Virus record (IMG/VR): IMGVR_UViG_3300029791_000448
Span: 1-64,000 of that record
Strand: one strand, 5' to 3'
DNA from: a virus
Length of the DNA stretch: 64,000 nt
Below, piece after piece: positions 40,649 through 53,498 of the stretch. Under the pieces are notes generated by a model. The model was not told where the DNA came from. It made no database searches and was given only the letters and a program-made list of their open reading frames with translations. The number at the start of each line of letters is the position of its first letter. The first letter of the stretch is position 1. The translations under genes were made by a program, and so were the position numbers.

Positions 40649-40654
40649 GGTCTG

Positions 40655-40755: not shown

Positions 40756-40847
40756 TACACACCTCTTTTTGTCGGATTTATGTGTATTTCCATACTGAAA
40801 GAATCCGCCACTACGAGCAAAAGCTCCCGAAGGAGCTCTGCCCTTTT

Positions 40848-41132
40848 TCAGTGTGCGTTCCTGATGCACCACTCGATTGCGTGACCAGCATCCGTGTAGG
40901 TCTCATCGGAAATCTTCAGAAGTTCCAGCCGGCACTCAATCGGTGACCAGCCTTCCTCCGGATCTTCCACAAAGCCGTATACCGCTCCCTCCAGCATGCC
41001 GTTCCAGTTCATCTGGGCAACCAGAACCCGGTCACCGAACTGCATGATGCTGTCGTAGCAAGGTCTGAGTCGGTCGTAGAAGCTCTCGATGCTGATGTTG
41101 TTTTCCGGGAAGTCGATCAAATGCTTTTTCAT
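40848..41132 (-). CDS. Hypothetical protein, 94 aa
   Basis: ORF preceded by a promoter-repeat copy and RBS. Confidence 0.5.
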   Translation of the reverse strand: MKKHLIDFPENNISIESFYDRLRPCYDSIMQFGDRVLVAQMNWNGMLEGAVYGFVEDPEEGWSPIECRLELLKISDETYTDAGHAIEWCIRNAH

Positions 41133-41149
41133 GGTGAATTCCTCCGTGT

Positions 41150-41245
41150 TTTCGTTTTTTCCTTGGGGCTTTTCCCTTTCGGTATGTGCATATTACCGTC
41201 AGGTGCAAAGGATAGCAAGCAGCTAAAGTACACGATCTTCCGTCT
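41150..41245 (-). repeat. Promoter/5'UTR repeat copy 2
   Basis: TTTCCCTTTCGGTATGTGCATATTACCGTCAGGTGC...GATAGCAAGCAGCTAAAGTACACGATC. Confidence 0.6.
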
Positions 41246-41267
41246 GGAATACCAAGCAGAATGTACA

Positions 41268-41474
41268 TCACTCTGCATCCTGCTCCATGAGTTCCACAAT
41301 GGTGTCGTAGAAGAACTGCGGGTCATATGCCAGCGGTTCCCGTCCGGCTTCCTTATCCATCCTGATCTGGTCTTCCACCATATCCTCGGCATCCTCCAGC
41401 GTGAAGGCATCCTTATCGCTGTCATCCATGTGGTTGTAGATTTCCACGATGACATCCATCATCCGCTCTTCCAT
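41268..41474 (-). CDS. Small acidic protein, about 68 aa
   Basis: Start MEERMMDV. Acidic, D/E-rich. Confidence 0.45.
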   Translation of the reverse strand: MEERMMDVIVEIYNHMDDSDKDAFTLEDAEDMVEDQIRMDKEAGREPLAYDPQFFYDTIVELMEQDAE

Positions 41475-41601
41475 GTGCTTCTCCTTTCTGGCGCATCCAC
41501 GCCGCCACATCTTCCCCTGTGCGGGGCGTTGTCGGTTCATTCGGACGTTTTGCCACCCGTGGCACAAGCCCCTGTGTGGGGCTGTGTCGGGGGCTGCTGG
41601 T

Positions 41602-41793
41602 TTATCTGGTCATCCGTCCCAGCAGGTAGGCTTCCTCCATTGCTTTTTGGATGCCCCAGACCGGAACCTCAATGAAGTCCTCGCTGTCATTGTCGCGGGC
41701 TTCGAGGTCGCCCCGGCTGTCTACCGCTGCCATCAGGCGCTTGGCGATCTCCAGCAGGGCTTTTTCCTCTTCCTTGGTGATGTTCTTCTTCAT
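41602..41793 (-). CDS. Hypothetical small protein, 63 aa
   Basis: Preceded by promoter-repeat copy 3 and an RBS. Confidence 0.45.
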   Translation of the reverse strand: MKKNITKEEEKALLEIAKRLMAAVDSRGDLEARDNDSEDFIEVPVWGIQKAMEEAYLLGRMTR

Positions 41794-41799
41794 AGTGGT

Positions 41800-41880
41800 T
41801 TCCTCCGTTTTTCTTGGTTTTCCCTTTCGGTATGTGCATATTACCGTCTATGTCACACACTATCAAGCGGCTATACTACA
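41800..41880 (-). repeat. Promoter/5'UTR repeat copy 3
   Basis: TTTTCCCTTTCGGTATGTGCATATTACCGTCTATG...CTATCAAGCGGCTATACTACAC. Confidence 0.6.
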
Positions 41881-41963
41881 CAAATATGTTCCCCCGGAAC
41901 TGTGCGTATTACGGCAGAAGAAAAGGGCCGCCGTTTCCGGCAAGCCCCATGTGTTTCTCTGGC

Positions 41964-42413
41964 TTAGTAGTCTTCGTCGTCCTCGTAATCTTCCTCTTCG
42001 TCCCAGTCATCTTCCTCTTCATCCCAGCTGTCATCCTGGTCTTCTTCCTCATCTTTGAAGTCCCACATATCTTCAGTCGGCTGGTTTCTAAGGTCTGGGT
42101 TCTGCTCGACATAGTCGGCAACCGCTCCGCAAAGGATGTCCAGGACCTTTTCGTAGGCTTCCTCGCTGTAGACTGCCCAGGCATCTGCAGTCAGCTTTGC
42201 GATTTTGTCGTTGCCCTTGACTCCAAGGAACCGCCCTGCAGGGTTGCAGGTTTCCTTGCCATAGCCGATGCCCAGCTGGTCGCCGTCGTTGTAAAAGCGG
42301 TATCCGATGCGGCTCATTGCCCTTACCAGCTCCCCTGCGAGGCTGCCTGCCTTGCCCGTCTCCGGTACCAGTTCCTTGAAAAGTTTATTGATGCGTTCTT
42401 CGTTCTTCGTCAT
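41964..42413 (-). CDS. Protein with extremely acidic C-terminal tail (DEEEDQDDSWDEEEDDWDEEEDYEDDEDY), about 149 aa
   Basis: Start MTKNEERINKL after repeat copy 4. The tail is DNA-mimic-like in composition. Confidence 0.5.
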   Translation of the reverse strand: MTKNEERINKLFKELVPETGKAGSLAGELVRAMSRIGYRFYNDGDQLGIGYGKETCNPAGRFLGVKGNDKIAKLTADAWAVYSEEAYEKVLDILCGAVADYVEQNPDLRNQPTEDMWDFKDEEEDQDDSWDEEEDDWDEEEDYEDDEDY

Positions 42414-42424
42414 TGTCGTATCCT

Positions 42425-42505
42425 CCGTTTTTGTTGTTTTTCCCTTTCGGTGACTGTATATTACCGTCACCTCGGAGCACTATCAAGCGGCTAAACTACA
42501 CGATC
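42425..42505 (-). repeat. Promoter/5'UTR repeat copy 4
   Basis: TTTTTCCCTTTCGGTGACTGTATATTACCGTCACCTCGGAGCACTATCAAGCGGCTAAACTACACGATC. GTGAC..GTCAC inverted repeat around the -10 box. Confidence 0.6.
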
Positions 42506-42615
42506 ATTCAATCCTGTAATTGTCATATTTATGTGCTTTTCATGCCAGCTTTCGGAAGACAGACACGAGCAAAAGGCTGGTCATTTCCAGCCCCTTGCGC
42601 CTGTCGGTCTTGCCT

Positions 42616-42876
42616 TTAGCGGATGATTTCAAGGTAGCTTACGTTGCCCCAGCAGTCCGTTCCCTTGAAGCGGATGCGATTTTCGTTCTCCCTGTCGAGG
42701 GTGAATTTCCGCAGGTGCTTCATCTTCTGGATGCGGTTCAGAAGGTCCTTGCCGTTCTTCGCATCCTCAACGGCATCCCTGATCTCGACCACCGCGCTGT
42801 CGCTTCCGTACCAGAGGTTGCTGAGTGCCTCTGGGATTCCGTTCGCAAGGTAAAGGTTGATTTTTGTGTAGATCAT
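42616..42876 (-). CDS. Hypothetical protein, 86 aa
   Basis: Intact ORF co-oriented with the 42892..43098 gene. Confidence 0.45.
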   Translation of the reverse strand: MIYTKINLYLANGIPEALSNLWYGSDSAVVEIRDAVEDAKNGKDLLNRIQKMKHLRKFTLDRENENRIRFKGTDCWGNVSYLEIIR

Positions 42877-42891
42877 TGTATTTTCCTCCTC

Positions 42892-43098
42892 TCAAAATGT
42901 CATCGTTTCCAGAATCTCATCCGTGGCTGTCTCCCAGTCGTGGCGGCTAAGTTCGATTTTGCTGTACATCTCTGCACTGTCTGGCTCATCGAAAAGCCGG
43001 AAGCATTCTCTTGCCAGCTCCTCGCTTGTGTGCTGCTGGATTTCATCTGGCTGTCCATCCAGCCGTGTAAAGGTGATTTCGTAAGTGTAGCGTTCCAT
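42892..43098 (-). CDS. Hypothetical small acidic protein, 68 aa
   Basis: Directly downstream of promoter-repeat copy 5. Confidence 0.45.
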   Translation of the reverse strand: MERYTYEITFTRLDGQPDEIQQHTSEELARECFRLFDEPDSAEMYSKIELSRHDWETATDEILETMTF

Positions 43099-43099
43099 G

Positions 43100-43180
43100 T
43101 TCTTTGCCCCTTTCGTTTTGGTAGCTGTATATTACCGTCACTGCCGGATACTATCAAGCGGCTAAACTACACGATCATCT
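43100..43180 (-). repeat. Promoter/5'UTR repeat copy 5
   Basis: CCCCTTTCGTTTTGGTAGCTGTATATTACCGTCACTGCCGGATACTATCAAGCGGCTAAACTACACGATC. Confidence 0.6.
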
Positions 43181-43237
43181 GCACCCTGATCTGGTGGATT
43201 TATGTGTTTATCCGGGGAGGTTTCCCTCCCCATTTTC

Positions 43238-43414
43238 TTAGCTGAACATCTCTGCTGTGTCATCGTCGATCCAAAGGTGCATGCCGTCTGCTTCCATGAT
43301 CGCGTGGTCTTCATGAACCTCGGTGATGATTCCTTCCCGGCTTCCGCTTCCATCGAATTCGTTCCAGTGCCATGTTGTCTTTCTCCCTTTTTTCCATGTT
43401 CTCCAATCAGCCAT
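43238..43414 (-). CDS. Hypothetical small protein, about 58 aa
   Basis: Start MADWRTWKKGRK after promoter-repeat copy 6. Confidence 0.4.
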   Translation of the reverse strand: MADWRTWKKGRKTTWHWNEFDGSGSREGIITEVHEDHAIMEADGMHLWIDDDTAEMFS

Positions 43415-43419
43415 TCTGC

Positions 43420-43500
43420 TGTCCTCCTTTGCTTTTTGTAGCTGTATATTACCGTCACCGCCCTGTGATAGCAAGGCCATAAAACGTCATATTATCAACG
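43420..43500 (-). repeat. Promoter/5'UTR repeat copy 6 (variant B: TTGCTA -35)
   Basis: TGTAGCTGTATATTACCGTCACCGCCCTGTGATAGCAAGGCCAT. Confidence 0.55.
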
Positions 43501-43623
43501 ATCTTTGCCCCTCATGTTTGGTACATATATGACCCCTGATTGACTTGCTATATATGTGTTTCTGCGGCATTATACACACAACGAAAGCAAAGAAAACCAA
43601 ACCAAAAACGGAGGACAAAAACC

Positions 43624-43875
43624 ATGAAAAAGACCATTACAGAAGTTGAAACCGCAATCGAAAACCGCATCGCAGAGCTTGAAGAAGAATACGAGCTGGA
43701 CATTTACGACCGCAACGACATCCGGGAAGAAGAATACCAGAAAGCCGGATGGCGACACGACCCTTTCCCAGAGGAGCTTGAGGAAGAGGACGAAGAAGAG
43801 GAAGAGGATTGGCACTACCACAGTATGGAGGAACGACTGAACGAGGTCGGCATGAGCATGAGGGATTTCTTCTAA
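43624..43875 (+). CDS. Small highly acidic protein (EELEEEDEEEEEDW), 83 aa
   Basis: ATG with AACGGAGGA RBS. The only plus-strand gene in the accessory array. Followed by hairpin CCCCAGC..GCTGGGG at about 43893..43910. Confidence 0.55.
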   Translation: MKKTITEVETAIENRIAELEEEYELDIYDRNDIREEEYQKAGWRHDPFPEELEEEDEEEEEDWHYHSMEERLNEVGMSMRDFF

Positions 43876-43989
43876 GGAATCCCCCAGAGGCTCCCCAGCG
43901 GAGGCTGGGGCTCTGCCTCGTATCCCCGGTTTTGGTTTGGTATGATACACAAAACCGCTGCCAGATGTTTGTGTACATTATGGCGGCGG

Positions 43990-44030
43990 TTCTCCTTGCT
44001 ATCGTTGCTTTCCAGAGGTAATATACAGTA
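43990..44030 (+). repeat. Inverted copy of the promoter repeat, giving a plus-strand TTGCTA-17-TAATAT promoter
   Basis: TTGCTA at 43996..44001 and TAATAT at 44019..44024, with ..GGTAATATACAG.. This is the reverse orientation relative to all other copies. Confidence 0.5.
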
Positions 44031-44036
44031 AACTGG

Positions 44037-44326
44037 AAGGGGGTTCTCATTCTTTTGAGGCTCCCATTTTCCGTCTAATCGGCTTCGCCCCGTATTGCCT
44101 GATGCATCACCCTGCGGTTATGCGCTCTGGCTTTCTTTTTCAGGTCCCTTTTCCATCTGCGGATGGTCACCGCCTTGCAGTGATTTCTCGACCATTCGTA
44201 TTCATCCAGAATGTATCTGCCGCTGTGTTCCCTCTCGCCATAAGCAGGCATCTTTCTGTGTCCCATAAGCTCCTCCTGTTAAACCAAGCCCTCCCGGTCT
44301 TTTCTGACCGAGAGGGTATTTTTTCT
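44037..44326 (+). ncRNA. Putative cis-antisense RNA (~290 nt) covering the minus-strand 44075..44266 gene
   Basis: Bounded by the plus-strand promoter at 43996..44024 and a plus-strand intrinsic terminator at 44289..44326 (CCCTCCCGG-N10-CCGAGAGGG plus TATTTTTTCT). No plus-strand RBS or plausible ORF. Confidence 0.35.
44075..44266 (-). CDS. Small protein with strongly basic C-terminal half, 63 aa
   Basis: Strong GGAGGAG RBS. The tail RRWKRDLKKKARAHNRRVMHQAIRG is highly basic. Fully overlapped by the predicted antisense transcript. Confidence 0.45.
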   Translation of the reverse strand: MGHRKMPAYGEREHSGRYILDEYEWSRNHCKAVTIRRWKRDLKKKARAHNRRVMHQAIRGEAD

Positions 44327-44338
44327 AATTGCAGTATC

Positions 44339-44710
44339 TTATTCCGGCTTCGTTCCATCATCCATCTGGATGACTGCCATCTGCCCAAACATGCTGACGA
44401 ATGCCTCCGGCACCCAGAACCGTTCCCTGAATTTCCGGATGAGGTCCTGGGGCAGCTCTGCGAAATCTTCCTCTCCCAGTCCACAGATGAAGAAGTTTCC
44501 CTTGATGGGCTGCTCCAGCTCCGGGATGTACCTGCTGAATGACTTCTCGGTGAACAGCCCATTGTCATCGGTGACCAGGGCAGCGCGTTCTTCCCACGGG
44601 TATGTGGCTGTGATGCAGTCGCAGTCGAGGATGCGGTAGAACTCTTTCAGGGAGTTTTCAATGTCCACCACCTGCGGATGCTCCATCGGTTTGATCAGAA
44701 GGACTTTCAT
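44339..44710 (-). CDS. DUF3846-like protein, about 123 aa
   Basis: Start MKVLLIKPMEHPQVVDIENSLKEF, the typical DUF3846 opening. Overlaps the upstream gene by ATGA. Confidence 0.55.
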   Translation of the reverse strand: MKVLLIKPMEHPQVVDIENSLKEFYRILDCDCITATYPWEERAALVTDDNGLFTEKSFSRYIPELEQPIKGNFFICGLGEEDFAELPQDLIRKFRERFWVPEAFVSMFGQMAVIQMDDGTKPE

Positions 44711-45174
44711 TCGACCCAGCCCCCTTTTACGATTGCCCAGTCTGCAAGCTGCATCTTCTGCTGTCCACCCCATGCAATGTCCTCTAACGCTTCCTCCGTT
44801 CCGCAGCGGTTGCAGATCTGGATGTCTGCCCTTCGGCTGAGTGCCTGCTGCTGATGGTCGTAGCAGTCGGGCTTTGCTCCGCACCTGGGGCAACGTGGGC
44901 CGGTCTGTCGCGTTTTACCAAGGCGGTCGAGCGACACCTTGACCTCGGCATCCGTTGCCACACGGTGGCAACTGTCCGCACCGTAGGCAACGTTCAGATG
45001 GCTTCCGGTATCCCAGCTCACTAAGATGTTTCCGGCATCATCGACCCCGTTGCAGGTTCCCTGCGTTCCGATGGACGGTGCCTGCCTGTCATCCATCTCA
45101 TCGAGGACGATCCGGCATCCGACCGGGAACTCTTTTCTCAACTTCTTGACCGTTTTCTGATCTGCGAAATTCAT
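44707..45174 (-). CDS. DUF4314 domain protein with C-terminal Cys-rich (zinc-ribbon-like) region, about 155 aa
   Basis: LRKEFPVGCRIVLDEMDD...GTCNGVDDAGNILVSWDTGSHLNVAYG core, then CPRCG...CNRCG motifs. Confidence 0.6.
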   Translation of the reverse strand: MNFADQKTVKKLRKEFPVGCRIVLDEMDDRQAPSIGTQGTCNGVDDAGNILVSWDTGSHLNVAYGADSCHRVATDAEVKVSLDRLGKTRQTGPRCPRCGAKPDCYDHQQQALSRRADIQICNRCGTEEALEDIAWGGQQKMQLADWAIVKGGWVE

Positions 45175-45650
45175 GCCTGCGCCTCCTCGATCATCTTCTG
45201 GGCGGCATCTTTGTCCATGCATTCCTTCAGCGCACCTTCGAGGATGTGCATCGGGAAGCGGAATGCCTTGTAGCCGTCATGCAGGACTTTGTAGTAATAC
45301 CGGCTCGGTGCGCGGTGTCCGAAGTCGTTCTCCATAATGTAAACCATTGCGGTCACCATCTCCGGATCTGTCCCTTCCCGGAGCAGTTCAATGTTCAGGT
45401 CTTCCTTGCGGTAGTAGTTCGGGTAGCCCTCATAGAGGTCGAGGTTTCCTTCGTCCCTTTCCGAGATCTCCCACACCAGAACCGGCGTGTTCTTCTTCGG
45501 GTTCGGTGCGATGGTAGCGCAGCCGCGGAACAAAAGCTCCCAGCCGGCCAGCACCGCCTGTCCTGCAATTTTTGCATCAGGACACCGGTATGCCATCTGC
45601 TCCACCGACAGGTTGCTGCCGTAGGCGATGTAATATTTCTTGTTCTTCAT
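45171..45650 (-). CDS. Gamma-glutamyl cyclotransferase-like (AIG2/GGCT fold) protein 1, about 159 aa
   Basis: N-terminal YYIAYGSNL...RCP signature of the GGCT/AIG2-like fold. Start MKNKKYY. Confidence 0.7.
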   Translation of the reverse strand: MKNKKYYIAYGSNLSVEQMAYRCPDAKIAGQAVLAGWELLFRGCATIAPNPKKNTPVLVWEISERDEGNLDLYEGYPNYYRKEDLNIELLREGTDPEMVTAMVYIMENDFGHRAPSRYYYKVLHDGYKAFRFPMHILEGALKECMDKDAAQKMIEEAQA

Positions 45651-45780
45651 TTGAATCTCTCCCTTCGGTTTTCTCCGCTCTTGTCTTGCGGTATGGTATA
45701 TATCACTCTTCTGCCCTGATTTATCAAGGCCTATGAGCATCATATACTGCACAATGTTTTTTGCTTTTGATCGTGTATTC

Positions 45781-46311
45781 TTACATCATCTGCTGCTTCT
45801 TCAGATACCGGATGGCTTCTGCCCTTCCGATACTGGCTGCCAGTCCACGCTTCAGTGTGTCCAGCGGAAATTCCCAGTCGCTGTATCCGCCACGCAGCAG
45901 TTCAAAATACTCGGCATCCGGGCAGCCAAGCTGTCTGTCCTCGTGCATCACATAGGCCATGCAGTTCTTCGGCTTCTTCATGCGGTTGCCGTTCATGTTC
46001 CAGATGGGAAGCTGGAACTGCTTTTTGTAGTAGTACCGTGGGAAGCCCTCGTACCGGTCCAGCAAAAGTTCATCATATTCTGAGAGTTTCCAAACCACGG
46101 CCGGTACACTTTCGTTGGCATCCTGCTCGATGGTTGCGTAGCTTCCGGTCTTGCTCTTCTTGAACAAAAGCCGATAGCCGTAAATCTCGGTCACACCGAC
46201 TGGCACTGCGTAGGGGCATCTCCGCCCCATCCGTTCCATGTCGAGGTTACTTCCGTAGGCAAGGTAGAACTTCGATGGTGTCCGGCTGATGAGTTCAAAC
46301 CGTTCATTCAT
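45781..46311 (-). CDS. Gamma-glutamyl cyclotransferase-like (AIG2/GGCT fold) protein 2, about 176 aa
   Basis: FYLAYGSNLDMERMGRRCP signature. Paralog of the preceding gene. Confidence 0.7.
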   Translation of the reverse strand: MNERFELISRTPSKFYLAYGSNLDMERMGRRCPYAVPVGVTEIYGYRLLFKKSKTGSYATIEQDANESVPAVVWKLSEYDELLLDRYEGFPRYYYKKQFQLPIWNMNGNRMKKPKNCMAYVMHEDRQLGCPDAEYFELLRGGYSDWEFPLDTLKRGLAASIGRAEAIRYLKKQQMM

Positions 46312-46540
46312 CCAAACCACCGTCCTCCCTGCCCGTGAATTCCACGCCTTGAAAATCTTCTGTTCCCAGCTCAATCTGGCTGTCCTGCCACCAGTCCTCT
46401 GCCACACGCTGGGCTTCCTCGACGGTCGGCTCTTTCATTTCGGATTCGTAAACTGTGATGGTTCTCTGGTAGGTTTCAGTGATGGTCACCTTAAAGGCTC
46501 TGCCACCCGGTGTGTTTTCATTTTTTAACGTGCTTTTCAT
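46304..46540 (-). CDS. DpnD/PcfM-like small protein, 78 aa
   Basis: KVTITETYQRTITVYESEMKEPTVEEAQRVAEDWW...GVEFTG matches the PcfM/DpnD-like pattern of conjugative-element and phage accessory regions. Confidence 0.55.
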   Translation of the reverse strand: MKSTLKNENTPGGRAFKVTITETYQRTITVYESEMKEPTVEEAQRVAEDWWQDSQIELGTEDFQGVEFTGREDGGLDE

Positions 46541-46607
46541 AAACCTGCACCTCCTTCTACCACCTCAAGGGCGGTTGCCCGCCCAAAAGGTGCCCGTGCA
46601 TCCCAGC

Positions 46608-47546
46608 TTATTTGTTCCGCCAGGATGCGTTGCCCTCCATGTTCCGCAGAAGGATCTCCCTTGCCGTTGCAAATTCATCCCCGATGAATCCCAGCCTCAG
46701 CATCCAGCACCGCATCGCGTACTTTTCGTTGTCGGTCTGCTGGGGCTTCGGGCTTGCCGTTCTGACCATCTTGGCAAGCTGGCTCATTGCGAGGCAAAGC
46801 TGGATGTAGGCTTTCATCTCACCGGCATGCAGTCCATTGCGCTTTCCGTCCGCTGGGTCTGCGAATTGGAAAAGGCGGAATTCAATGGTTCCCTTTGTGA
46901 AGGTGGCATGGAGGTTCAGCATATGGTACCGGCTTGAATTGTAGTGGGCATTTCGGTTTTCCCAGCTGGAACCGTTGCCTTCGTACCAAATGTCTTCCAG
47001 CTTGCGCATGGTGGTCGGCTTCTCGCGGTTCAGCCGGTCGAGGAAGCGGTGGTTGACCACCTGGCAATATTGTCCGGTGCGCCCTGCATCGATTCGGATG
47101 GCTCTGCCGATCTGCTGTTCGTGCGCCGCCATGATATTCACAAGGTTGCGGATGGTCTTTGCGGTGTGGTCGCCTTTGCCGATGTGGATGTGAACCCCGC
47201 ATCCGCGGCTTGGGCCGCTCTTTGCGCCTGCCTTTCGGAGCAGTCGGATAATCTCCTGCAGGGTTTCGATGTCGTCGTAGGTGAGGATCGGGGTGACCAG
47301 TTCGCATTTTTCTGCGTCCGGTCCGTAGATGCTCACATCCCTCTGGAATTTCCAAACCCTGCCCTGTCCATCCTTGCAAGCCCAGCTGTAATATCCGTAC
47401 TCGCTGGCCGCGTTCCATGCTCTGGTTCCGAAGTACTCGGCGACCTTTCTTGCCGCTTTTTCTCTGGTGATGTTGTTCATCTCGATCTCAACCCCGATGG
47501 TCTGGTTCTTCATGGCTTCAATCTGCTCTCTTGTTTTATCGTTCAT
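46608..47546 (-). CDS. Amidoligase_2-family (putative ATP-dependent amidoligase) protein, about 312 aa
   Basis: Start MNDKTREQ after repeat copy 7. N-terminal TIGVEIEMNN motif and overall amidoligase organisation. Its C-terminal region is shared with the 47779..48963 protein. Confidence 0.65.
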   Translation of the reverse strand: MNDKTREQIEAMKNQTIGVEIEMNNITREKAARKVAEYFGTRAWNAASEYGYYSWACKDGQGRVWKFQRDVSIYGPDAEKCELVTPILTYDDIETLQEIIRLLRKAGAKSGPSRGCGVHIHIGKGDHTAKTIRNLVNIMAAHEQQIGRAIRIDAGRTGQYCQVVNHRFLDRLNREKPTTMRKLEDIWYEGNGSSWENRNAHYNSSRYHMLNLHATFTKGTIEFRLFQFADPADGKRNGLHAGEMKAYIQLCLAMSQLAKMVRTASPKPQQTDNEKYAMRCWMLRLGFIGDEFATAREILLRNMEGNASWRNK

Positions 47547-47549
47547 GGT

Positions 47550-47720
47550 ATGTTCTCCTTTGTTTTTTCCTTGTTTTCCCTTTCGGTATGTGCATATTAC
47601 CGTCAGGTGCGGATAATAGCAAGGATATAAAAGAACATATATTCGACAAATATAAGGCAGAATGATCGTGTACATTTCTGCAGTTTATCCGCTTGATAAT
47701 GTACATTTTCAGAGCTAATA
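47550..47720 (-). repeat. Promoter/5'UTR repeat copy 7 with an added oppositely oriented TTGATA-17-TAATAT box at 47691..47719
   Basis: TTTTCCCTTTCGGTATGTGCATATTACCGTCAGGTGC...ATAGCAAGG on the minus strand, then ..CCGCTTGATAATG..-17-..TAATAT on the plus strand. Confidence 0.55.
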
Positions 47721-47778
47721 TCGGTACAATGGAAGAGGGTCTCGCATATTTTCCGGCCCCCATTGGGGGATTGGGAGC

Positions 47779-48963
47779 TTACGCTCCCACCTCCAGCATC
47801 TGCGCCGTGTCTGCCCCACAGTCGGGCTGTGTCGGCCGGGTCGTATCCGGTGCGACCGTTTCCCCTGTGGCAGGATCGCCGTTCTGTGCCGCCAGTTTCG
47901 CGGCTTTCAGGGCATCCCGTTTTGCCTTTTCCCTTGCAAGGAACTTCTGTGCTTCCTCATCCGTGCGGAAAGCCGCATGGCCGGAAAGGTTCTCCATGAG
48001 GATCTTGCGTGTCTCTTTGAAATCCGGACCGTTCATCCCCAGCCGCAGGAGCCATGTGCGGAGTGCGTATTTCTCATTCTCATCGTTGACATCCTTTGCC
48101 TGGATGCGCTTCTGGCTGATAGCCTGCTGGTTCATCAGCACCGCCAGCTGTGCAAAAGCCGTCAGATGTTCGTGGTCCGGTGCAGTCGGGAAGCCGGTAA
48201 AGGTGACCTTCTCGGTGGTGATTTTCAGGCCTTCCAGTGCAGCACCATGTTCAGTCTCATAGTCGCTGACCGCATTGATGAAGTTCATGATGGCAAAGGT
48301 GCAGCTATCGTCCTTCAGCTTCTCGACCAGCCCCTCTTCCACATGGAAGTGTCCTCCAGTCGCCTTGCCGATGAGCTTGCCGCGGCTGTAAAGAAGGTTG
48401 ACCAGGTTGCGGAGAGTCACACCGTTGTGCTGGCTGACCGGGAATGCAAGTTCCAAGTCCAGCGGCACCTCTTCCGGCTGATCTTCTGTCTCCTGCGATT
48501 CTGCATCCGGCTCATCCTCTATGGTATCATCCTCAGCCGTATTGTCCGGCTCCAATGCATCCTCGGCTCCTGCTTCCGCAGGTTCATCTTCTGCGGTATC
48601 TGCATCTTCGGATTCCTGCTCGTCCAGAACCTCCAGCTCTGCTTCGGGCATCTGCTCAGTTTCCGCTTCGGTCACAGGCTCCTCATCCATATCCGCTGTC
48701 AGCTCTGTGTCCTCCGGCTGGTCATCCGTGCTCTCAATACTCTCGCCGCCGCGGATCAGTCCCTCATTCAGCAGGGTCGTCAGCAGCTCGGCATCTGCAT
48801 TCTCCGGCTCGACCAGAAGGTTGCCATTCCGGTCGATGGTGTAGCTCCCGATGTCGTAAGAATACAGAGGTGCTTTGGTATAGTAAGGGTGGATGCCGGT
48901 CAGCTCCTCCATGCGTTTTGCGAGGGTCTTTCTCTCGGCTACGTTCAGTTTAAATTTCAACAT
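47779..48963 (-). CDS. Acidic protein with poly-D/E/T/A central region and a C-terminal domain homologous to the amidoligase C-terminus, 394 aa
   Basis: Central ~140-aa D/E-rich tract. C-terminal NEKYALRTWLLRLGMNGPDFKETRKILMENLSG parallels NEKYAMRCWMLRLGFIGDEFATAREILLRNMEG of the amidoligase. Confidence 0.6.
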   Translation of the reverse strand: MLKFKLNVAERKTLAKRMEELTGIHPYYTKAPLYSYDIGSYTIDRNGNLLVEPENADAELLTTLLNEGLIRGGESIESTDDQPEDTELTADMDEEPVTEAETEQMPEAELEVLDEQESEDADTAEDEPAEAGAEDALEPDNTAEDDTIEDEPDAESQETEDQPEEVPLDLELAFPVSQHNGVTLRNLVNLLYSRGKLIGKATGGHFHVEEGLVEKLKDDSCTFAIMNFINAVSDYETEHGAALEGLKITTEKVTFTGFPTAPDHEHLTAFAQLAVLMNQQAISQKRIQAKDVNDENEKYALRTWLLRLGMNGPDFKETRKILMENLSGHAAFRTDEEAQKFLAREKAKRDALKAAKLAAQNGDPATGETVAPDTTRPTQPDCGADTAQMLEVGA

Positions 48964-48964
48964 A

Positions 48965-49065
48965 ATTCATCGCTCCTTTTCGTTCATTTGTTTTTGTGCA
49001 TCCCGATGTTCTTTTCGGTAGCACATATATCACTCTAAAACGGATGAATAGCAAGGCCATTTCCC
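48965..49065 (-). repeat. Promoter/5'UTR repeat copy 8 (variant B)
   Basis: ..TTTTCGGTAGCACATATATCACTCT...GAATAGCAAGGCCAT.. Confidence 0.5.
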
Positions 49066-49186
49066 GATATTCTTCATGTTCGACCATTTACACAAGGGAC
49101 CGCAAAATCTGTTGTGTAAATAGGACCAATATGTAAGCCCACCATATCAACAGGTCGCTTTCTACCTAGTAATATAGCGGGCCAGT

Positions 49187-51445
49187 TTATTCTTCCAGAC
49201 CTGCACACCACGCGATGCCGGCCAGAACAAAGAATGCGTTGGCTAAGCAAATGCCGTTGCCCCAGATACGGTACTCTGCCGAATCCGTATACGGGTCAGC
49301 CAGCCATTTCCGGATCTGCTTCTCCGTCTTCGGCTTCTTGGCATGGGTCACGATCTTACGGTGTGTTTCAAACACATCCGCCCAGAACGCCAGATCTTCC
49401 TCGGTTGGGTTTTCCGTTCCGAGATCTCTGCACCACCAGTCAGGGAATCCCTGCAGTCTGGCACACTCGGTCGGTGTCAAACGGCGGACGGTATAGGTCA
49501 CAGGTGCGGGCTGTGCTTCCGGATTGTCGATGACCAGACGGTCATTGAAGGCATCCTGCCCGTTGAAGCCGCTGGGATGTGCCCCGGTTGCCACGGTTCC
49601 CATGACACCCTCGTTCAGATGCGGCACCGGTGCGATAGTGGTTGGGTCTTTGTAATCCCGTGCCATCAGGGTCGGTGCGACTTCTTTTGCCACCTGCATA
49701 TAGGAGCCGGTGGTCATGGCATACACATCCTCCGGTGCGCAGATTGCATGGCGGTCAGTGGCATCCAGTGTAAAGCAGACATCCTCATTGACGCCATCCC
49801 CCTGCGGACCGTTCTCATCCTTGCGGCCGATCATGTTGCCCTGCAGGACGAAGGTCTGCATCTGGTCACTCCGGGTCGCCATCAAAGCGCCGGATTTGCC
49901 ATGCAGATCGATCAGCTCATTGCGCTGGTTCACATGGAACGCAGTCATCTCTTCCGGCTGTGCCACAAAGGTCTGCTGCTTCATCCCCGGCTCTGCTGCC
50001 AGTGCCGCTGACTTCTCTCCCAGATCCCTGACTTCATCCCTCTGATTCTGGGTAAAGGCGACCGGCTCTACCACACAGATGCCGCCCTGATTGCAGGTCG
50101 GGTCACCACCGCTGCGGTCCAGTGTCCGGGAGGTCTCCGCTTCATAGAAACCGCTATGCGGATTGTCGGACATCATGGAGTGGCTGGCTTTGGAGCAGAC
50201 ACCATAGCATTTCGGAACGAACAGTGTCTGGTCGTTATTGCAGCCGAGGGTGGCCGACTTTTCTTCCTGCCAGATGGCTCCCTTGCCGCCGCCTTCACAC
50301 CCGGAACGGATCTTCAGTGTGACTGCCGGGGAGTTTTCAACTTCTTTCAGCGGACTTTCCACTGAATTTTCAACAGCGTTCATGACTATCGGGACATTAC
50401 CGCCACCCGTACCACACCTGCTTGTCAGTGTCTGCACCTTGCCATCCTCGGAAATCTTCACCCGGCTGTCTGCAGGATGGTTTTCCAAAGCGATAGCGGC
50501 AGGCACAACACCAGCCCGGAGGGTCGGTGACCGCTCTTCCTCATATCCGATGCTTCTGGCATCTGCCGAATGCTCGGTACAGAAACCAGCGGCTTCCAGG
50601 ACACACGGCTGATGCCCATGCTCCTCTGCCCGGAGGGTTCCGGTCACATCCTGGGAAACATCCATCTGCTTACCGCCCTGGTCGTTCAGACAGATCCGTC
50701 CTCCTGCTCCGCTGAAGCCTGCCTCTCCAGTGCCGCTTTCAGCACCGGCGGCAGCTCTTTGCCACGCACGGAAGCCCTCCGCAGAATACCGAGACACGCC
50801 TTCGGACTCAAATAGTACCTTTGGGGCACTCTGGTCTGCAAAATCTGCGACAAGGTAGATACGTTTTCTTCTTTGGGGAACGCCCCACCATTGTGCATCA
50901 AGAACTCGATACGCGACGCTCCATCCGTCTCCCACGTAATAGTCAGCGTCGGGCCATCCTTTCTTCTCAGGCGCAGGCACCGAGGCGGCCGGTTCTTTAA
51001 CACCGATGACTGCTTCGAGGACTGCTTTGAAGTCCTGTCCTTTGTTTGAGGAGAAGGCCCCTGGCACATTCTCCCACACGATAAATCTTGGTTTTTCTCC
51101 ATTGGTCTTACACCTCATTTCCTTCACGATTCGGATTGCTTCGTAAAACAGGCTGGACCGTGAACCATCCAGACCGTCCCGCTTACCAGCGATGGACATA
51201 TCCTGACAGGGACTGCCAAAGGTGATGATGTCCACAGGCGGCAGGTCTGCACCGCTGATGGCGGACACATCTCCATAGTGCTTCACCTGCGGCAGACGCT
51301 TGGTCGTGACCCGGATGGCAAAGGGCTCGATCTCGCTGCTCCACACCGGAGTGATCTGCCCAGTCAAAAGACCGCCCAATGGAAAACCCCCGGAGCCATC
51401 AAAGAGGCTGCCGAGGGTCAAAGTCTTATTCTGTTCTGTGCTCAT
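49187..51445 (-). CDS. DNA (cytosine-5)-methyltransferase with very long variable/target-recognition region, 752 aa
   Basis: Motif I FDGSGG, PCQ motif GSPCQDMSIAG, ENV motif WENVPG, and C-terminal TVRRLTPTECARLQGFP. About 450 aa lie between motifs VIII and IX. Confidence 0.85.
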   Translation of the reverse strand: MSTEQNKTLTLGSLFDGSGGFPLGGLLTGQITPVWSSEIEPFAIRVTTKRLPQVKHYGDVSAISGADLPPVDIITFGSPCQDMSIAGKRDGLDGSRSSLFYEAIRIVKEMRCKTNGEKPRFIVWENVPGAFSSNKGQDFKAVLEAVIGVKEPAASVPAPEKKGWPDADYYVGDGWSVAYRVLDAQWWGVPQRRKRIYLVADFADQSAPKVLFESEGVSRYSAEGFRAWQRAAAGAESGTGEAGFSGAGGRICLNDQGGKQMDVSQDVTGTLRAEEHGHQPCVLEAAGFCTEHSADARSIGYEEERSPTLRAGVVPAAIALENHPADSRVKISEDGKVQTLTSRCGTGGGNVPIVMNAVENSVESPLKEVENSPAVTLKIRSGCEGGGKGAIWQEEKSATLGCNNDQTLFVPKCYGVCSKASHSMMSDNPHSGFYEAETSRTLDRSGGDPTCNQGGICVVEPVAFTQNQRDEVRDLGEKSAALAAEPGMKQQTFVAQPEEMTAFHVNQRNELIDLHGKSGALMATRSDQMQTFVLQGNMIGRKDENGPQGDGVNEDVCFTLDATDRHAICAPEDVYAMTTGSYMQVAKEVAPTLMARDYKDPTTIAPVPHLNEGVMGTVATGAHPSGFNGQDAFNDRLVIDNPEAQPAPVTYTVRRLTPTECARLQGFPDWWCRDLGTENPTEEDLAFWADVFETHRKIVTHAKKPKTEKQIRKWLADPYTDSAEYRIWGNGICLANAFFVLAGIAWCAGLEE

Positions 51446-52215
51446 GCGGAAGCCTCCTCTCCGAGCATCTGCTCATTCGCTTTCCGGTAAAAATCTCTGG
51501 ATACTTCAAATCCGTAACTGTTGCGCCCCAGTTCCCGTGCAGCACGAAGAGTCGAGCCGCTGCCGGCGCAGGGGTCAATGACCACATCGCCCTCATCTGT
51601 AAAGGTCTCGATCAGTCGTTTCAGCACAGAGATCGGTTTCTGGGAGGGATGGATCTTCGGATACTCCTTGCCGTCCCTCTTCCAGTCAAACCAGTTGAAG
51701 ATCATGTGGGGCTTTCCATCCTCACCGAGATTGCGGAACTTCGGGAGCTTGCCCCGGTACAGCACCAATGCATACTCCGTTGCACCTACGATCTTCATGT
51801 TGGCCTTTAAGACCTGCGGACTGTAGTTCTTGCAGAACACCAGCGGGATATAATTTTTGAAGCCGTATTTTTCCGCTTCGGTGATTACCTTCGGGATCTG
51901 CTGGAACGCACAGAACACGATCATGCACGGCGCATCCTTCTCGCCCGTGCCGGGTTCTTTCTTCAGCAGGCGGTTGCAGAAGTGGAAATACTCTGCAATG
52001 TTGAACGTGAAGTCGGTATTGAACGCCGCCTTCCTCGCCTTTCTGCTCTCCCCGTTTTTGTTGTCGCCATCCACATACCAGTCCGGCCGGCTGGCGTAGA
52101 AGTCCGTACCGATGTTGTACGGAATATCTGCGATCACCAGCTGTGCCTTGGGGATGTTATAGGACTTGAAGTTCTGGAAGTTGTCGTGGATGAGGACGCA
52201 TTTCACATCAGGCAT
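51442..52215 (-). CDS. DNA methyltransferase (N6-adenine or N4-cytosine, beta class), 257 aa
   Basis: D/N-PPY-like motif IADIPYN near the N-terminus and SAM-binding IDPCAGSGST near the C-terminus. Confidence 0.8.
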   Translation of the reverse strand: MPDVKCVLIHDNFQNFKSYNIPKAQLVIADIPYNIGTDFYASRPDWYVDGDNKNGESRKARKAAFNTDFTFNIAEYFHFCNRLLKKEPGTGEKDAPCMIVFCAFQQIPKVITEAEKYGFKNYIPLVFCKNYSPQVLKANMKIVGATEYALVLYRGKLPKFRNLGEDGKPHMIFNWFDWKRDGKEYPKIHPSQKPISVLKRLIETFTDEGDVVIDPCAGSGSTLRAARELGRNSYGFEVSRDFYRKANEQMLGEEASA

Positions 52216-53476
52216 CGGTATCCTCGCTTTCCGGCTCGAAGGTCGCTACTTCCTCGAACTTCAGTTTCTGGCCGTCACGGATGACATACACATCATCGTA
52301 GTGACCATCATTGTGTTCGATGTACCGCTTCACGATTACATCCACAAACTTCGGGTCCAGCTCGATACCCCGGCACACACGGTCGGTCTCTTCACAGGCG
52401 ATCAGGGTCGAGCCGCTTCCAAGGAACGGATCAAGGACGATGCCGTTGGTCATGGTTGAATTGCGGATCGGATAGCTCATCAGACCGATGGGCTTCATGG
52501 TCGGATGGTCCTTGTTGGACTTCGGCCGGTCATACTCCCAGATGGTCGTCTGCTTGCGGTCGGAATACCACTGGTGCTTCCCCTTCTGCTTCCAGCCGTA
52601 GAGACACGGTTCGTGCTGCCACTGGTAAGGACTGCGGCCCAGCACCAGCGCATTCTTCTTCCAGATACAGCACCCGGACAGGTAGAACCCGGCATCCTTG
52701 AATGCCTTTCTAAAGTTCAGCCCTTCCGTATCTGCATGGAAGATGTAGATGGAACCGTCGTCTGAAAGATGGTCGTGCATCTGCTGGAACGCTGCCAGCA
52801 GGAACTGGTAGAATTCCGAATCGCCCATATTGTCATTCATGATCTTACCGGCAGTCTCTTCCACATCCACGTTATAAGGGGGATCGGAAAGGACCAGATT
52901 TGCCTTGGTTCCGTCCATCAGGGTGTCGTAGCATTCTGCTTTGGTGGAATCACCGCACAGAACGATGTGCTTTCCCAGATGCCAGAGGTCACCATCTTTG
53001 GAAAAGCATGGCTGCTTCAGCTCGGATTCCACATCGAAGTCATCTTCCTTGACCTCTTTGCTGTGGACTTTGTTGAACAGCGTCTCAATCTCCGGCGGCT
53101 CAAAGCCGGTCTTACCAAGGTCGAAGTTGGAATCCTCGATGTCCTTCAAAAGATCAGCCAGCAGAGAATCATCCCATGCACCCGTAATCTTATTGAGCGC
53201 AATGTTCAGGGCTTTCTCCCTGGTCTTGTTGATGTCCACCACCGCACAAGGCACTTCGGTGTAGCCCAGCTCCATCGCTACGGTCAATCTCTGGTGGCCG
53301 CCGATGATTGTCATATCGGCATTGACCACCAAAGGATCTGCGAACCCGAACTCCGTGATGGAGTTCTTGATCTTCTCGTACTCTTTATCCCCCGGCTTCA
53401 GCTTCTTCCGGGGATTGTATGCGGCCGGCTTGAGTACGGACACCGGCAGCATCTTCAGTTCAGCAGTCGCTTTCAT
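52208..53476 (-). CDS. ParB-like nuclease domain fused to DNA methyltransferase (DPPY-type), about 422 aa
   Basis: Start MKATAELKML with an AGGAGGA RBS. ParB/Srx N-domain (LKPAAYNPRK..GGHQRL), then SDPPYN and DPFLGSGST motifs. Confidence 0.8.
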   Translation of the reverse strand: MKATAELKMLPVSVLKPAAYNPRKKLKPGDKEYEKIKNSITEFGFADPLVVNADMTIIGGHQRLTVAMELGYTEVPCAVVDINKTREKALNIALNKITGAWDDSLLADLLKDIEDSNFDLGKTGFEPPEIETLFNKVHSKEVKEDDFDVESELKQPCFSKDGDLWHLGKHIVLCGDSTKAECYDTLMDGTKANLVLSDPPYNVDVEETAGKIMNDNMGDSEFYQFLLAAFQQMHDHLSDDGSIYIFHADTEGLNFRKAFKDAGFYLSGCCIWKKNALVLGRSPYQWQHEPCLYGWKQKGKHQWYSDRKQTTIWEYDRPKSNKDHPTMKPIGLMSYPIRNSTMTNGIVLDPFLGSGSTLIACEETDRVCRGIELDPKFVDVIVKRYIEHNDGHYDDVYVIRDGQKLKFEEVATFEPESEDTDA

Positions 53477-53498
53477 GTAGGCTCCTCCTAATTCAGAT

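Follow-up and report, generated by a model that had tools for sequence, protein, structure and literature searches.

Five adjacent genes of a phage genome raise the question of whether an amidoligase, two GGCT-fold proteins, a small DpnD/PcfM-like protein and a strongly acidic protein act together, and in what capacity the acidic protein takes part. The genes (45171-48963) lie in the window, the 64,000-nucleotide stretch of an IMG/VR virus record analysed here (Table 1). All five are co-directional on the minus strand, where the preliminary description had placed them, and the starts of the 394-, 312-, 78-, 176- and 159-residue proteins are identical to public gene calls.

Table 1. Features of the locus and its flanks, by position in the window.
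Feature	Position	Strand	Basis or remark
Terminator-like hairpin after DUF3846 gene	44289-44316		11-bp stem
DUF3846 protein	44339..44710	-	Pfam DUF3846 3.9e-22; start overlaps DUF4314 stop
DUF4314 protein, C-terminal CxxC...CxxC segment	44707..45174	-	Pfam DUF4314 9.1e-27
GGCT paralog 2 (GGCT2), 159 aa	45171..45650	-	Pfam GGACT 6.7e-12, AIG2_2 9.3e-7; PHROG 2520 3e-42
Diverged copy of promoter-like element	~45660-45745		Upstream of GGCT2; alignment
GGCT paralog 1 (GGCT1), 176 aa	45781..46311	-	Pfam GGACT 5.8e-9; PHROG 2520 1.1e-35
DpnD/PcfM-like small protein, 78 aa, acidic tail	46304..46540	-	Pfam DpnD-PcfM (PF14207)
Amidoligase, 312 aa, intact GS/GCL-fold carboxylate-amine ligase	46608..47546	-	Pfam, fold, catalytic residues
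Promoter-like repeat, TTGCTA-17-TAATAT plus conserved leader	47551..47631	-	In 232-nt gap before amidoligase gene
PARA, pseudo-amidoligase, 394 aa, 'acidic protein'	47779..48963	-	Paralog of amidoligase
C-terminal helical module common to PARA and amidoligase (PARA residues 264-334)	47962..48174	-	
Predicted disordered polyanionic insertion of PARA (residues 76-170)	48454..48738	-	pLDDT, composition
C5 DNA methyltransferase	49187-51445	-	Pfam match; upstream context
N6/N4 methyltransferase	51442-52215	-	Pfam match; upstream context
ParB-domain N6 methyltransferase	52208-53572	-	Pfam match; upstream context

The 312-residue protein is an Amidoligase_2 enzyme, as had been proposed. It matches PF12224 with an E-value of 7.7e-55 (186.9 bits against a cut-off of 22) over profile positions 1-244 of 245 and protein residues 13-254 of 312, and shows a GS/GCL-type carboxylate-amine ligase fold whose nearest relatives are gamma-glutamylcysteine ligases and YbdK, with PafA and Dop also among the fold neighbours. 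Its metal/ATP-type set is complete, residues E20, E22, E82, H119, H121, R206, E222 and R224 being invariant across 42 homologues. Amidoligase_2 ligases occur in phages and plasmids, and their linkage to AIG2/GGCT genes was reportedly predicted by comparative genomics by Iyer et al. in Mol Biosyst in 2009. Here, too, the amidoligase adjoins GGCT-fold genes, as initially noted, and the pairing recurs in unrelated phages, namely Bacillus phage 031MP004, Ruminococcus phage NatCom_28775 and the LUZ24-like phage UFV-P2 (PMC3890496). The description of the pathway as biochemically uncharacterised holds: the literature searched yielded no characterised member and no PDB structure was retrieved by sequence, and PADLOC, NCBIfam and literature searches gave no functional anchor for the proteins of the module.

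The two tandem GGCT/AIG2-fold proteins both score above the Pfam GGACT cut-off, in agreement with the first assignment (PF06094, 37.0 bits for GGCT1 and 46.5 bits for GGCT2, cut-off 22.8), and are paralogs of one another (32% identity, E 6e-29). Compared with the human GGCT (C7orf24), GGACT and BtrG enzymes, both align full-length to human GGCT, which is the solved structure nearest to GGCT1 (2PN7), and both retain the YGSNL motif and the Glu98 position (RYEG in GGCT1, LYEG in GGCT2); the matches are, however, distant (E 2.5e-6 and 7.6e-5, respectively), and the phage carries two diverged copies in tandem. The YGSNL and Glu98-equivalent positions are conserved in 53 phage GGCT homologues, and PHROGs places GGCT in the category 'moron, auxiliary metabolic gene and host takeover'. 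The PcfM/DpnD-like call for the 78-residue protein is upheld by a full-length, marginal profile match (1.5e-6, 28.6 bits against a cut-off of 25). Its stop codon overlaps the GGCT1 start, and the identical protein sequence occurs on 247 public contigs.

The 394-residue protein, here called PARA, had been thought to share only its C-terminal module with the amidoligase. That similarity survives alignment far above chance (BLASTP, 40% identity over 67 residues, E 2e-14), but the homology is full-length and colinear. Residues 2-342 match PHROG 2443 'amidoligase' (8.5e-39), a profile-profile alignment pairs PARA 166-334 with amidoligase 114-311 (probability 99.9%, E 3e-32), and the AlphaFold model of PARA shows the same reduced GS/GCL ligase fold, so that PARA shares both homology and fold with true amidoligases. 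In Pfam, neither PARA (at E ≤ 0.01) nor nine further members of its family reach the threshold for any family. The positions equivalent to E20, E22, H119, H121, E222 and R224 are occupied by K, K, E, A, T and T, and two segments, the Glu82 strand and the R206 region, have been lost. Indeed, catalytic positions are variable or non-catalytic in 73 of 73 PARA members, none of which has a histidine at the HxH positions. Judged by these alignments, PARA is a complete, catalytically dead amidoligase paralog and not an unrelated borrower of the C-terminal domain. The family comprises ~2,320 representatives at 50% identity and, where it is named at all, goes by 'hypothetical protein' or 'virulence-related protein'. 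With dN/dS values of ~0.15 in its folded parts, against ~0.03-0.04 for the amidoligase, PARA is under purifying selection and evolves four to five times faster than the active enzyme; this constraint, together with the size of the family, indicates a working gene.

The acidic tract of PARA, first given as ~140 residues long, spans ~95-100 residues (44 Asp/Glu, no Lys/Arg). AlphaFold block-mean pLDDT values of ~42-60 over residues 81-160 predict a disordered surface loop, and no tandem DNA repeat was found in the insertion. The equivalent loop varies from 5 to 184 residues across the family and measures 4-17 in many members, so it cannot define the function of the family; the tract is a lineage-specific insertion in a surface loop. 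A role for the acidic protein as a DNA mimic, raised at the outset, is possible, and a folded DNA-like charge surface was rejected on account of the predicted disorder and variable length of the segment. Long acidic loops occur mainly where two GGCTs and a PcfM-like gene are present, the fullest enzyme set (median 92 residues versus ~8), which suggests that PARA and the enzymes are connected, though shared ancestry confounds the association. A view of these genes as separable units underplays this link.

The C-terminal module, in contrast to the loop, is the most conserved part of both PARA and the amidoligase. It carries the motif N-E-K-Y-x-x-R-x-W-L-x-R-L-G-x-x-G-x-E/D-F/Y-K-x-x-R and contains most of the invariant and near-invariant columns of A1. 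The module is basic and clade-specific and is not covered by the Pfam Amidoligase_2 match; the amidoligases of Clostridia phages have it, the Bacillus phage enzyme does not. Because it is shared by PARA and a live enzyme, it is the best candidate surface for binding a common target, and the common interaction partner envisaged in the preliminary description is possible.

The gene content of the window points to a siphovirus-type (pro)phage, temperate in type, of gut Clostridia. An ICE setting, which had been considered, does not hold, nor does a plasmid leading region marked by conjugation genes: the window encodes the terminase, portal, protease, capsid, tail and tape-measure genes for packaging, head and tail of a tailed phage, and a plasmid search returned only five matches, weak and all from non-mobilisable replicons. 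The block of amidoligase, GGCT and PARA genes is flanked by three DNA methyltransferase genes, which lie upstream of it together with a SAM synthetase gene, and on the other side by the terminase. Part of the gene order is conserved in related genomes. PARA usually follows a methyltransferase gene, which ends <450 nt before it in 41 of 50 loci (median gap 86 nt), and lies upstream of the terminase, but the company of amidoligase and GGCT genes is not constant. The promoter-like element ahead of the amidoligase gene is one of seven copies of a 57-110-nt direct repeat, of which a promoter scan detected four related copies, and can be aligned to copies upstream of small genes at 40.6-43.5 kb. The block shares these sigma-70-like repeated promoter elements with neighbouring genes for small acidic proteins. 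Further small acidic proteins are encoded in the same block, for example at 41964-42470, where the product has a D/E-rich tail.

PARA and the enzymes are separable in both directions. Among 52 PARA genome loci, 15 have neither amidoligase nor GGCT, 7 have an amidoligase only, 18 an amidoligase and one GGCT, and 11-12 the full set, PARA and amidoligase occurring together in 37. Annotated Clostridium and Streptococcus phages likewise carry PARA without an amidoligase, four IMG/VR loci (L027, L028, L030 and L052) combine PARA and GGCT2 without one while keeping the long acidic loop, and Ruminococcus phage NatCom_28775 has amidoligase and GGCT without PARA. Moreover, synonymous divergence of PARA and amidoligase differs sharply in the same phage pairs, which implies independent exchange of their alleles. 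Since each occurs without the other, any obligate complex is weakened, as is the earlier suggestion that the acidic protein is the tagged substrate of the enzymes.

Taking these observations together, we tentatively favour, at slightly under an even chance, an accessory module that forms a gamma-glutamyl amide and cleaves it again, accompanied by PARA as a separable, non-catalytic binder or decoy, in the service of host takeover or anti-defence. By analogy with every characterised member of the fold, the amidoligase would couple a glutamate-type carboxylate, activated with ATP, to an amine, yielding a gamma-glutamyl amide; one or two GGCTs would split such a bond again, turning the glutamyl group into cyclic 5-oxoproline. 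Acting together, the enzymes would place a gamma-glutamyl mark on a molecule of host or phage and take it off again, or else produce such a mark and use it up. If their substrate were a free gamma-glutamyl compound, the two activities would amount to a futile, ATP-burning cycle, and ligase and cyclotransferase may therefore act on different molecules. PARA is a duplicated amidoligase that has lost all its catalytic residues while keeping the fold and the basic, clade-specific C-terminal helical module, through which it most likely works as a non-catalytic binder or decoy. The acidic loop, a lineage-specific addition, would act as an electrostatic decoy resembling nucleic acid or else be autoinhibitory; as the loop is nearly absent in many members, a loop decoy cannot be the core function of the family. 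It is the neighbourhood of the module that suggests anti-defence, and its likely purpose would be host takeover or counter-defence and not virion building.

The alternative that fares best, though we consider it unlikely, makes PARA a non-catalytic regulatory or adaptor subunit that forms a heteromer with the amidoligase through the C-terminal module and recruits substrate, its acidic loop gating the active site or mimicking the substrate. The two are adjacent paralogs with their best-conserved region in common, they co-occur in most PARA loci, long loops accompany the fullest enzyme sets, and YbdK, the nearest fold relative, is dimeric. However, the amidoligase is missing from the 15 loci, the annotated phages and the four long-loop loci listed above, amidoligase and GGCT also occur without PARA, a promoter-like element of its own separates the amidoligase gene from that of PARA, and the alleles of the two genes are exchanged independently.

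Next in standing, and rather improbable, is a stand-alone anti-restriction or anti-defence decoy, in which a polyanionic loop on a dead-enzyme scaffold would mimic nucleic acid and titrate DNA-binding defence proteins, the amidoligase and GGCTs being unrelated neighbours. The exclusively acidic charge of the 95-residue loop, the position of PARA downstream of DNA methyltransferases, the other small acidic proteins of the block, and the relatively fast evolution and allele exchange of PARA are consistent with it. Like Ocr and ArdA, PARA is strongly negative and lies among anti-restriction-type genes (the methyltransferases); in contrast to their rigid charge arrays, its acidic part is a predicted disordered loop that is dispensable across the family and not a folded DNA-shaped surface. 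Members whose loop measures 4-17 residues retain the conserved scaffold and sit at the same place in the genome, and no match to ArdA, Ocr or another anti-restriction family was found for PARA in Pfam, PHROGs, NCBIfam or PADLOC.

Somewhat less probable again is an auxiliary metabolic pair with PARA as a bystander, a phage-run gamma-glutamyl cycle that would rewire host pools of glutamate, gamma-glutamyl peptides and 5-oxoproline, draining glutamate or ATP or destroying a gamma-glutamyl thiol or signal. The fold relatives of the amidoligase, the resemblance of the GGCTs to human GGCT, whose substrates are free gamma-glutamyl amino acids, the PHROGs category of GGCT and the nearby SAM synthetase, an instance of a metabolic gene carried by the phage, all favour such a cycle. 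Against it, 7 of the 52 loci have an amidoligase without a detectable GGCT, the four IMG/VR loci have a GGCT without an amidoligase, and no transporter or further pathway genes lie nearby.

A lineage-specific variant, to which we assign a small probability, would make PARA the working partner of a reversible gamma-glutamylation of protein or loop, its glutamate-rich disordered loop having expanded in step with the acquisition of the PcfM-like protein and the second GGCT. Amidoligase and GGCTs would then add and strip amide marks and so adjust the charge of a polyanionic decoy against host DNA-targeting defences; if so, the phage would encode an enzymatically adjustable nucleic-acid mimic. Very improbable is PARA as plain substrate, with the amidoligase modifying loop glutamates or ligating the PcfM-like protein in a Pup-like manner and the GGCTs erasing the mark: PafA and Dop are fold neighbours, some PcfM-like homologues end in GGE as does Pup, and long loops co-occur with PcfM and a second GGCT, but PcfM-like proteins vary in their last residue (the ends ...EADV, ...EADA and ...PPM account for most close relatives), long-loop PARA persists in lineages without amidoligase and PcfM, and a glutamate with its alpha-amine in a peptide bond cannot be cyclised by GGCT chemistry.

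Comparison with known systems places the favoured reading, an amide-forming and amide-breaking module with a separable binder, among its relatives. The Amidoligase_2 enzymes of LUZ24-like, Bacillus and Ruminococcus phages share HMM family, fold, catalytic residues and GGCT adjacency with the 312-residue enzyme, whereas the clade-specific basic C-terminal helical module and the dead paralog set the present system apart. Its block also lies after methyltransferases and before the terminase, unlike a classical early operon. Identity to gamma-glutamylcysteine ligase, YbdK, glutamine synthetase and PafA/Dop is only 9-15%, the phage enzyme is much smaller than these, and PARA is without their catalytic set. 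Pup, proteasome and glutathione genes are not present, and a PafA/Dop-family ligase or deamidase with proteasome partners was rejected. A conserved Pup-type GGQ/GGE tag was rejected as well, the protein of the window ending in ...GGLDE and its close relatives mostly in V, A or M. As in other pseudoenzyme paralogs, PARA keeps the fold, loses catalysis, adjoins an active paralog and is under purifying selection; in contrast to partner pseudoenzymes, it often occurs without that paralog.

The pairing of Amidoligase_2 with GGCT is one of the older predictions of phage comparative genomics, and a very abundant protein family of human-gut and rumen phages, with thousands of clusters, is a dead amidoligase. 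Should the module serve anti-defence, it would bear on host range among the dominant gut phages of Clostridia. Given that its parts are naturally separable, loci with PARA only, with PARA and enzyme, and with enzyme only form a natural deletion series for comparison. Downstream of the module, the DUF4314 start overlaps the GGCT2 stop; in related loci a DUF4314 gene lies ≤4.5 kb downstream of PARA in 41 of 52 cases, and its start lies ≤150 nt from the PARA stop in 17 of 61.

All genes from PARA, the 394-aa acidic protein, through to the DUF3846 gene lie on the minus strand (see table), and the chosen gene starts yield proteins found, identical at every residue, among public gene calls from hundreds of contigs. 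Overall, the preliminary description is borne out in part, as is its interpretation, and the family assignments are secure. The Pfam match of the 312-aa protein bears out the Amidoligase_2 enzyme recognized in the preliminary description. The two γ-glutamyl cyclotransferase (GGCT)-fold paralogs noted there are also recovered, GGCT1 and GGCT2 sharing 32% identity and both matching PHROG 2520 ('gamma-glutamyl cyclotransferase'), as is the PcfM/DpnD-like neighbour (PcfM), the last with a narrow margin. The gap from PARA to the amidoligase gene is 232 nt and that from GGCT1 to GGCT2 is 130 nt; the start of GGCT1 overlaps the stop of PcfM. NCBIfam and PADLOC searches gave no matches, defence-system membership being set aside on the empty PADLOC result, and an Rfam scan of 40000-50000 detected no structured RNA in the intergenic gaps. 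Near-identical amidoligases (P0407 and RHP01745.1, in the cluster of the window's enzyme, and P0292) go by the name 'alpha-L-fucosidase' at NCBI, which is evidently a mis-annotation.

Features of the PARA-amidoligase region and its surroundings
Feature	Position	Strand	Remarks
PARA, 394 aa, acidic	47779-48963	-	first in transcription order
Amidoligase, 312 aa	46608-47546	-	Amidoligase_2, 7.7e-55
DpnD/PcfM-like protein, 78 aa	46304-46540	-	DpnD-PcfM, 1.5e-6, barely over cut-off
GGCT1, 176 aa	45781-46311	-	GGACT 5.8e-9; PHROG 2520 1e-35
GGCT2, 159 aa	45171-45650	-	GGACT 6.7e-12; PHROG 2520 3e-42
DUF4314 protein	44707-45174	-	start overlaps stop of GGCT2
DUF3846 protein	44339-44710	-	start overlaps stop of DUF4314 gene
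Terminator-like hairpin	44289-44316		after DUF3846 gene
Promoter-like repeat copies	40680-40791, 41147-41227, 41795-41875, 42415-42542, 43102-43213, 43419-43475		before minus-strand genes
Promoter-like repeat copy	47551-47631		before a minus-strand gene, in the gap preceding the amidoligase gene
Diverged repeat copy	near 45660-45745		precedes GGCT2
Partial, diverged repeat copy	near 49013-49036		precedes PARA
Small protein with acidic tail, about 150 aa	41964-42470	-	own promoter-like repeat copy
Putative small protein	43540-43875	+	EEEDEEEEED run
Three DNA methyltransferases	within 49187-53572	-	one fused to ParB N-terminal domain
SAM synthetase MetK	55260-56327	-	all three Pfam domains
PemK/MazF-like protein, 226 aa	59035-59715	-	toxin domain, residues 89-203

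The similarity between the C termini of PARA and the amidoligase holds in alignment (40% identity over 67 aa, E 2e-14, BLASTP). The earlier view that only this domain is shared is excluded by profile and fold comparisons. PHROG 2443, named 'amidoligase', covers PARA residues 2-342 at 8.5e-39. When a profile of 73 PARA-family proteins (A1) was aligned by hhalign with one of 42 true amidoligases from related loci and annotated phages (A2; 24-99% identical), amidoligase residues 114-311 paired with PARA 166-334 at a probability of 99.9% (E 3e-32). The N-terminal 75 residues of PARA align weakly but colinearly with the enzyme, in the same order of strands and helices, and the top structural matches of PARA among viral models are phage amidoligases. 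Its AlphaFold model has pLDDT values >95 over residues 1-70 and 171-360 and block means <50 over 81-140, reaching 77 by 161-170, and predicts disorder beyond about residue 365. PARA does not reach the Pfam Amidoligase_2 threshold. A second BLASTP segment (LELAFPV against CELVTPI) was discarded as a mis-registration; MAFFT and hhalign set PARA 166-200 against the HxH strand and following RNLVN helix of the amidoligase.

Residues E20, E22, E82, H119, H121, R206, E222 and R224 are invariant in 42/42 true amidoligases, including the Bacillus phage enzyme at 24% identity, in an ExE...E...HxH...R...ExR pattern typical of the site that binds metal and ATP in ligases with the GCL/GS fold. The amidoligase of the window has the complete catalytic set. 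The PARA equivalents are K3, K5, a deleted strand (E82), E171, A173, a deleted segment (R206), T254 and T256; these positions vary across the 73 family members, none of which carries His at either HxH position (0/73). By this replacement, deletion and variability, PARA is a pseudoenzyme, a catalytically dead, full-length paralog of the amidoligase. Clustered at 90% identity, the family numbers over 2,065 clusters among the best 8,000 candidates scored; at 50% identity it has 2,320 representatives, of which 222 score below 1e-30. Database names for its members are 'hypothetical protein' or 'virulence-related protein'. No informative domain fusions were seen in the long members, a resolvase 'fusion' in one of them looking like a gene-call run-on. 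The amidoligase-GGCT pairing is an already known, uncharacterised theme; the novelty here lies in recognizing a pseudo-amidoligase family that is very large and has gone unannotated.

Residues 264-334 of PARA and 241-311 of the amidoligase share the motif N-E-K-Y-x-x-R-x-W-L-x-R-L-G-x-x-G-x-E/D-F/Y-K-x-x-R. This segment lies outside the Pfam Amidoligase_2 domain, accounts for the majority of invariant columns in each of the two families, and has conserved residues that are mostly basic or aromatic. Clostridia-phage amidoligases carry it, that of Faecalibacterium phage Taranis carries part of it, and the Bacillus phage enzyme lacks it. As judged from conservation, the module is apparently the sole functional surface retained by both live and dead paralogs, which makes the previously suggested common interaction partner a reasonable idea.

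The acidic tract, put at ~140 residues in the preliminary description, measures about 95 aa (residues 76-170) and contains 27 Glu, 17 Asp and neither Lys nor Arg. The tract is inserted into the loop which, in the live amidoligase, enters the HxH strand; a tandem-repeat origin was set aside, as a search of the DNA detected no such repeat. Across the family the equivalent loop spans 5 to 184 residues, averages 35% D/E and is poor in K/R in most members. In this lineage the pseudo-amidoligase carries a polyanionic loop that is predicted to be disordered. Loops are 34-138 residues long (median 92) at loci with two GGCTs and have a median of about 8 residues in all other composition classes, a difference (Mann-Whitney p = 4.5e-6) that is confounded by ancestry because the two-GGCT loci are also the closest relatives of PARA. 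Four IMG/VR loci that combine a long loop with no amidoligase are counter-examples, and the tie between long loop and two-GGCT enzyme set is a lead rather than a result.

Among close relatives, amidoligases are 96-99% identical, whereas identity drops to 77-82% in the folded C-domain of PARA and to 36-79% in its loop, which also shows indels. Codon analysis put dN/dS at 0.03-0.04 for the amidoligase and at about 0.15 for PARA, with the GGCTs, PcfM and the C5 methyltransferase near 0.1. At one related locus (L046), dS is 0.91 in the folded parts of PARA and 0.13 in the adjoining amidoligase. The divergence of PARA therefore has two causes, allele exchange and looser constraint, and an arms-race reading of its faster evolution is tempered because much of the divergence among close phages is allele exchange, beyond faster substitution alone. 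Decay of a pseudogene is ruled out by the dN/dS of about 0.15 and the thousands of family members; the PARA gene is functional and purifying selection acts on it.

The gene order is kept across relatives, a point raised in the preliminary description: 54 IMG/VR close-relative loci show the order C5-MTase, PARA, amidoligase, PcfM, GGCT1, GGCT2, DUF4314, DUF3846, with exceptions. In 4 of the 54, a long-loop PARA is followed directly by GGCT2, without amidoligase, PcfM and GGCT1, and 4 have one GGCT only. Distant relatives were represented by eighty loci from species-representative genomes, mostly those of Lachnospiraceae, Oscillospiraceae and Ruminococcus, and also of Oceanobacillus and Pelotomaculum. 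A methyltransferase gene ends <450 nt upstream of PARA at 41/50 distant loci (median gap 86 nt), a terminase lies downstream at 36/45 (median 2.5 kb) and a DUF4314 gene within 4.5 kb downstream at 41/52. Composition was counted at the 52 distant loci with sufficient downstream sequence: PARA stands alone at 15, with the amidoligase at 7, with amidoligase and one GGCT at 18, with amidoligase and two GGCTs but no PcfM at 1, and with amidoligase, two GGCTs and PcfM at 11. Conversely, Ruminococcus phage NatCom_28775 carries amidoligase and GGCT without PARA at the same genomic position, and the combination is also found in other phage lineages (one of them in PMC3890496). Separability of PARA and the enzymes thus runs both ways.

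At six prophage loci (L105, L109, L111, L115, L119, L131), the ORF for PARA directly adjoins that for the amidoligase or overlaps it by about 14-26 nt, GGCTs were not detected and the loop is 9-17 residues long; this compact two-paralog arrangement could serve well as a minimal system. The 17-kb PARA loci of Blautia faecis (L058) and Faecalibacterium intestinale (L060), genomes assigned to two different Clostridia families, are identical in layout and coordinates, which points to a wide range of hosts, a recent transfer or contamination in the assemblies. The same phage module occurs in MAGs labelled Woesearchaeota (L095), Bacteroidales (L076/L081), Succinivibrionaceae (L078) and Chloroflexi (L082), most likely mis-binned phage contigs.

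Seven copies of a repeat of 57-110 nt precede minus-strand genes in the interval from 40.6 to 47.6 kb. The repeat contains TTGATA or TTGCTA, set 17 nt apart from TAATAT, together with a conserved ACCGAAAGGGAAAA leader and an RBS. A short inverted repeat spanning the -10 hexamer (GTGAC...GTCAC or CGGTA...TACCG) could be an operator. With copies before PARA, the amidoligase gene and GGCT2, the block looks like three transcription units (PARA; amidoligase-PcfM-GGCT1; GGCT2-DUF4314-DUF3846), which appear, by consensus match only, to be driven by sigma-70-like elements common to neighbouring small genes. Several of these small genes encode acidic proteins, and the pattern would fit early or middle expression by the host polymerase as well as an accessory role for the block. 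One encodes the protein with an extreme acidic tail (...DEEEDQDDSWDEEEDDWDEEEDYEDDEDY), which is conserved in related phages, matches nothing in Pfam, PHROG, NCBIfam or PADLOC and may be of DNA-mimic type. The sole plausible plus-strand ORF of this otherwise all-minus-strand block is divergent from the adjoining promoter-like element.

By fold the amidoligase is nearest to YbdK and GCL, with Dop, GS and PafA next. All characterised members of this fold known to us act on a γ-carboxyl(amide) group of glutamate or glutamine, which the ligases among them activate with ATP. GGCT1 and GGCT2 each align over their whole length with human GGCT (2PN7) and retain the YGSNL motif and a glutamate opposite its Glu98, positions conserved in 53 phage homologues. 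A PDB sequence search returned no entry for either family, and a literature search found no experimental paper. Given the fold chemistry and the retained catalytic residues, the simplest reading is that the amidoligase would form a γ-glutamyl amide, which the GGCTs would remove as 5-oxoproline. We tentatively propose, with slightly less than even confidence, that the amidoligase writes and the GGCTs erase a γ-glutamyl bond, while PARA, non-catalytic and separable from them, would serve as a binder or decoy during takeover of the host or counter-defence.

PARA could instead be a regulatory subunit, a rival favoured by the shared C-terminal module and disfavoured by the loci with PARA alone. A stand-alone DNA mimic, suggested earlier for the acidic protein, would suit the polyanionic loop of this lineage more than the short loops elsewhere in the family. 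The amidoligase and GGCTs might also form a metabolic pair. A substrate or tag role is a further rival. Pup ends in GGE, and in one clade (L063, L065, L067, L068) the PcfM-like protein beside the amidoligase, a PafA-like-fold ligase, ends in ...GGE; a Pup-like tag is unsupported, the endings in the closest relatives of the window being mostly ...EADV and GGE not conserved.

The element is a phage. Downstream of the module lie genes for the small and large terminase subunits, portal, prohead protease, major capsid, major tail and a 1,984-aa tape-measure protein; the earlier framing in terms of ICEs, and a plasmid context likewise, do not apply because of these structural genes and because almost nothing similar occurs in plasmid databases. 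The same module is present in annotated Ca. Heliusvirales gut phages; the window phage was not placed among them, its TerL being nearest to Streptococcus Javan prophages (76%) instead. Thymidine-hypermodification genes accompany amidoligase genes in other viral contigs (PMC8989533). No such partner enzymes were found among the neighbouring ORFs scanned, a subset of those in the window, and a DNA hypermodification pathway was set aside on that basis. Upstream are C5, N6/N4 and ParB-domain N6 DNA methyltransferases and a SAM synthetase, along with a D5-type primase-helicase, a MazF/PemK-like protein and an SNF2 helicase. MetK and the three methyltransferases look like a self-supplied methylation toolkit. 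The PemK/MazF-like protein, encoded in the replication module, carries an N-terminal extension.
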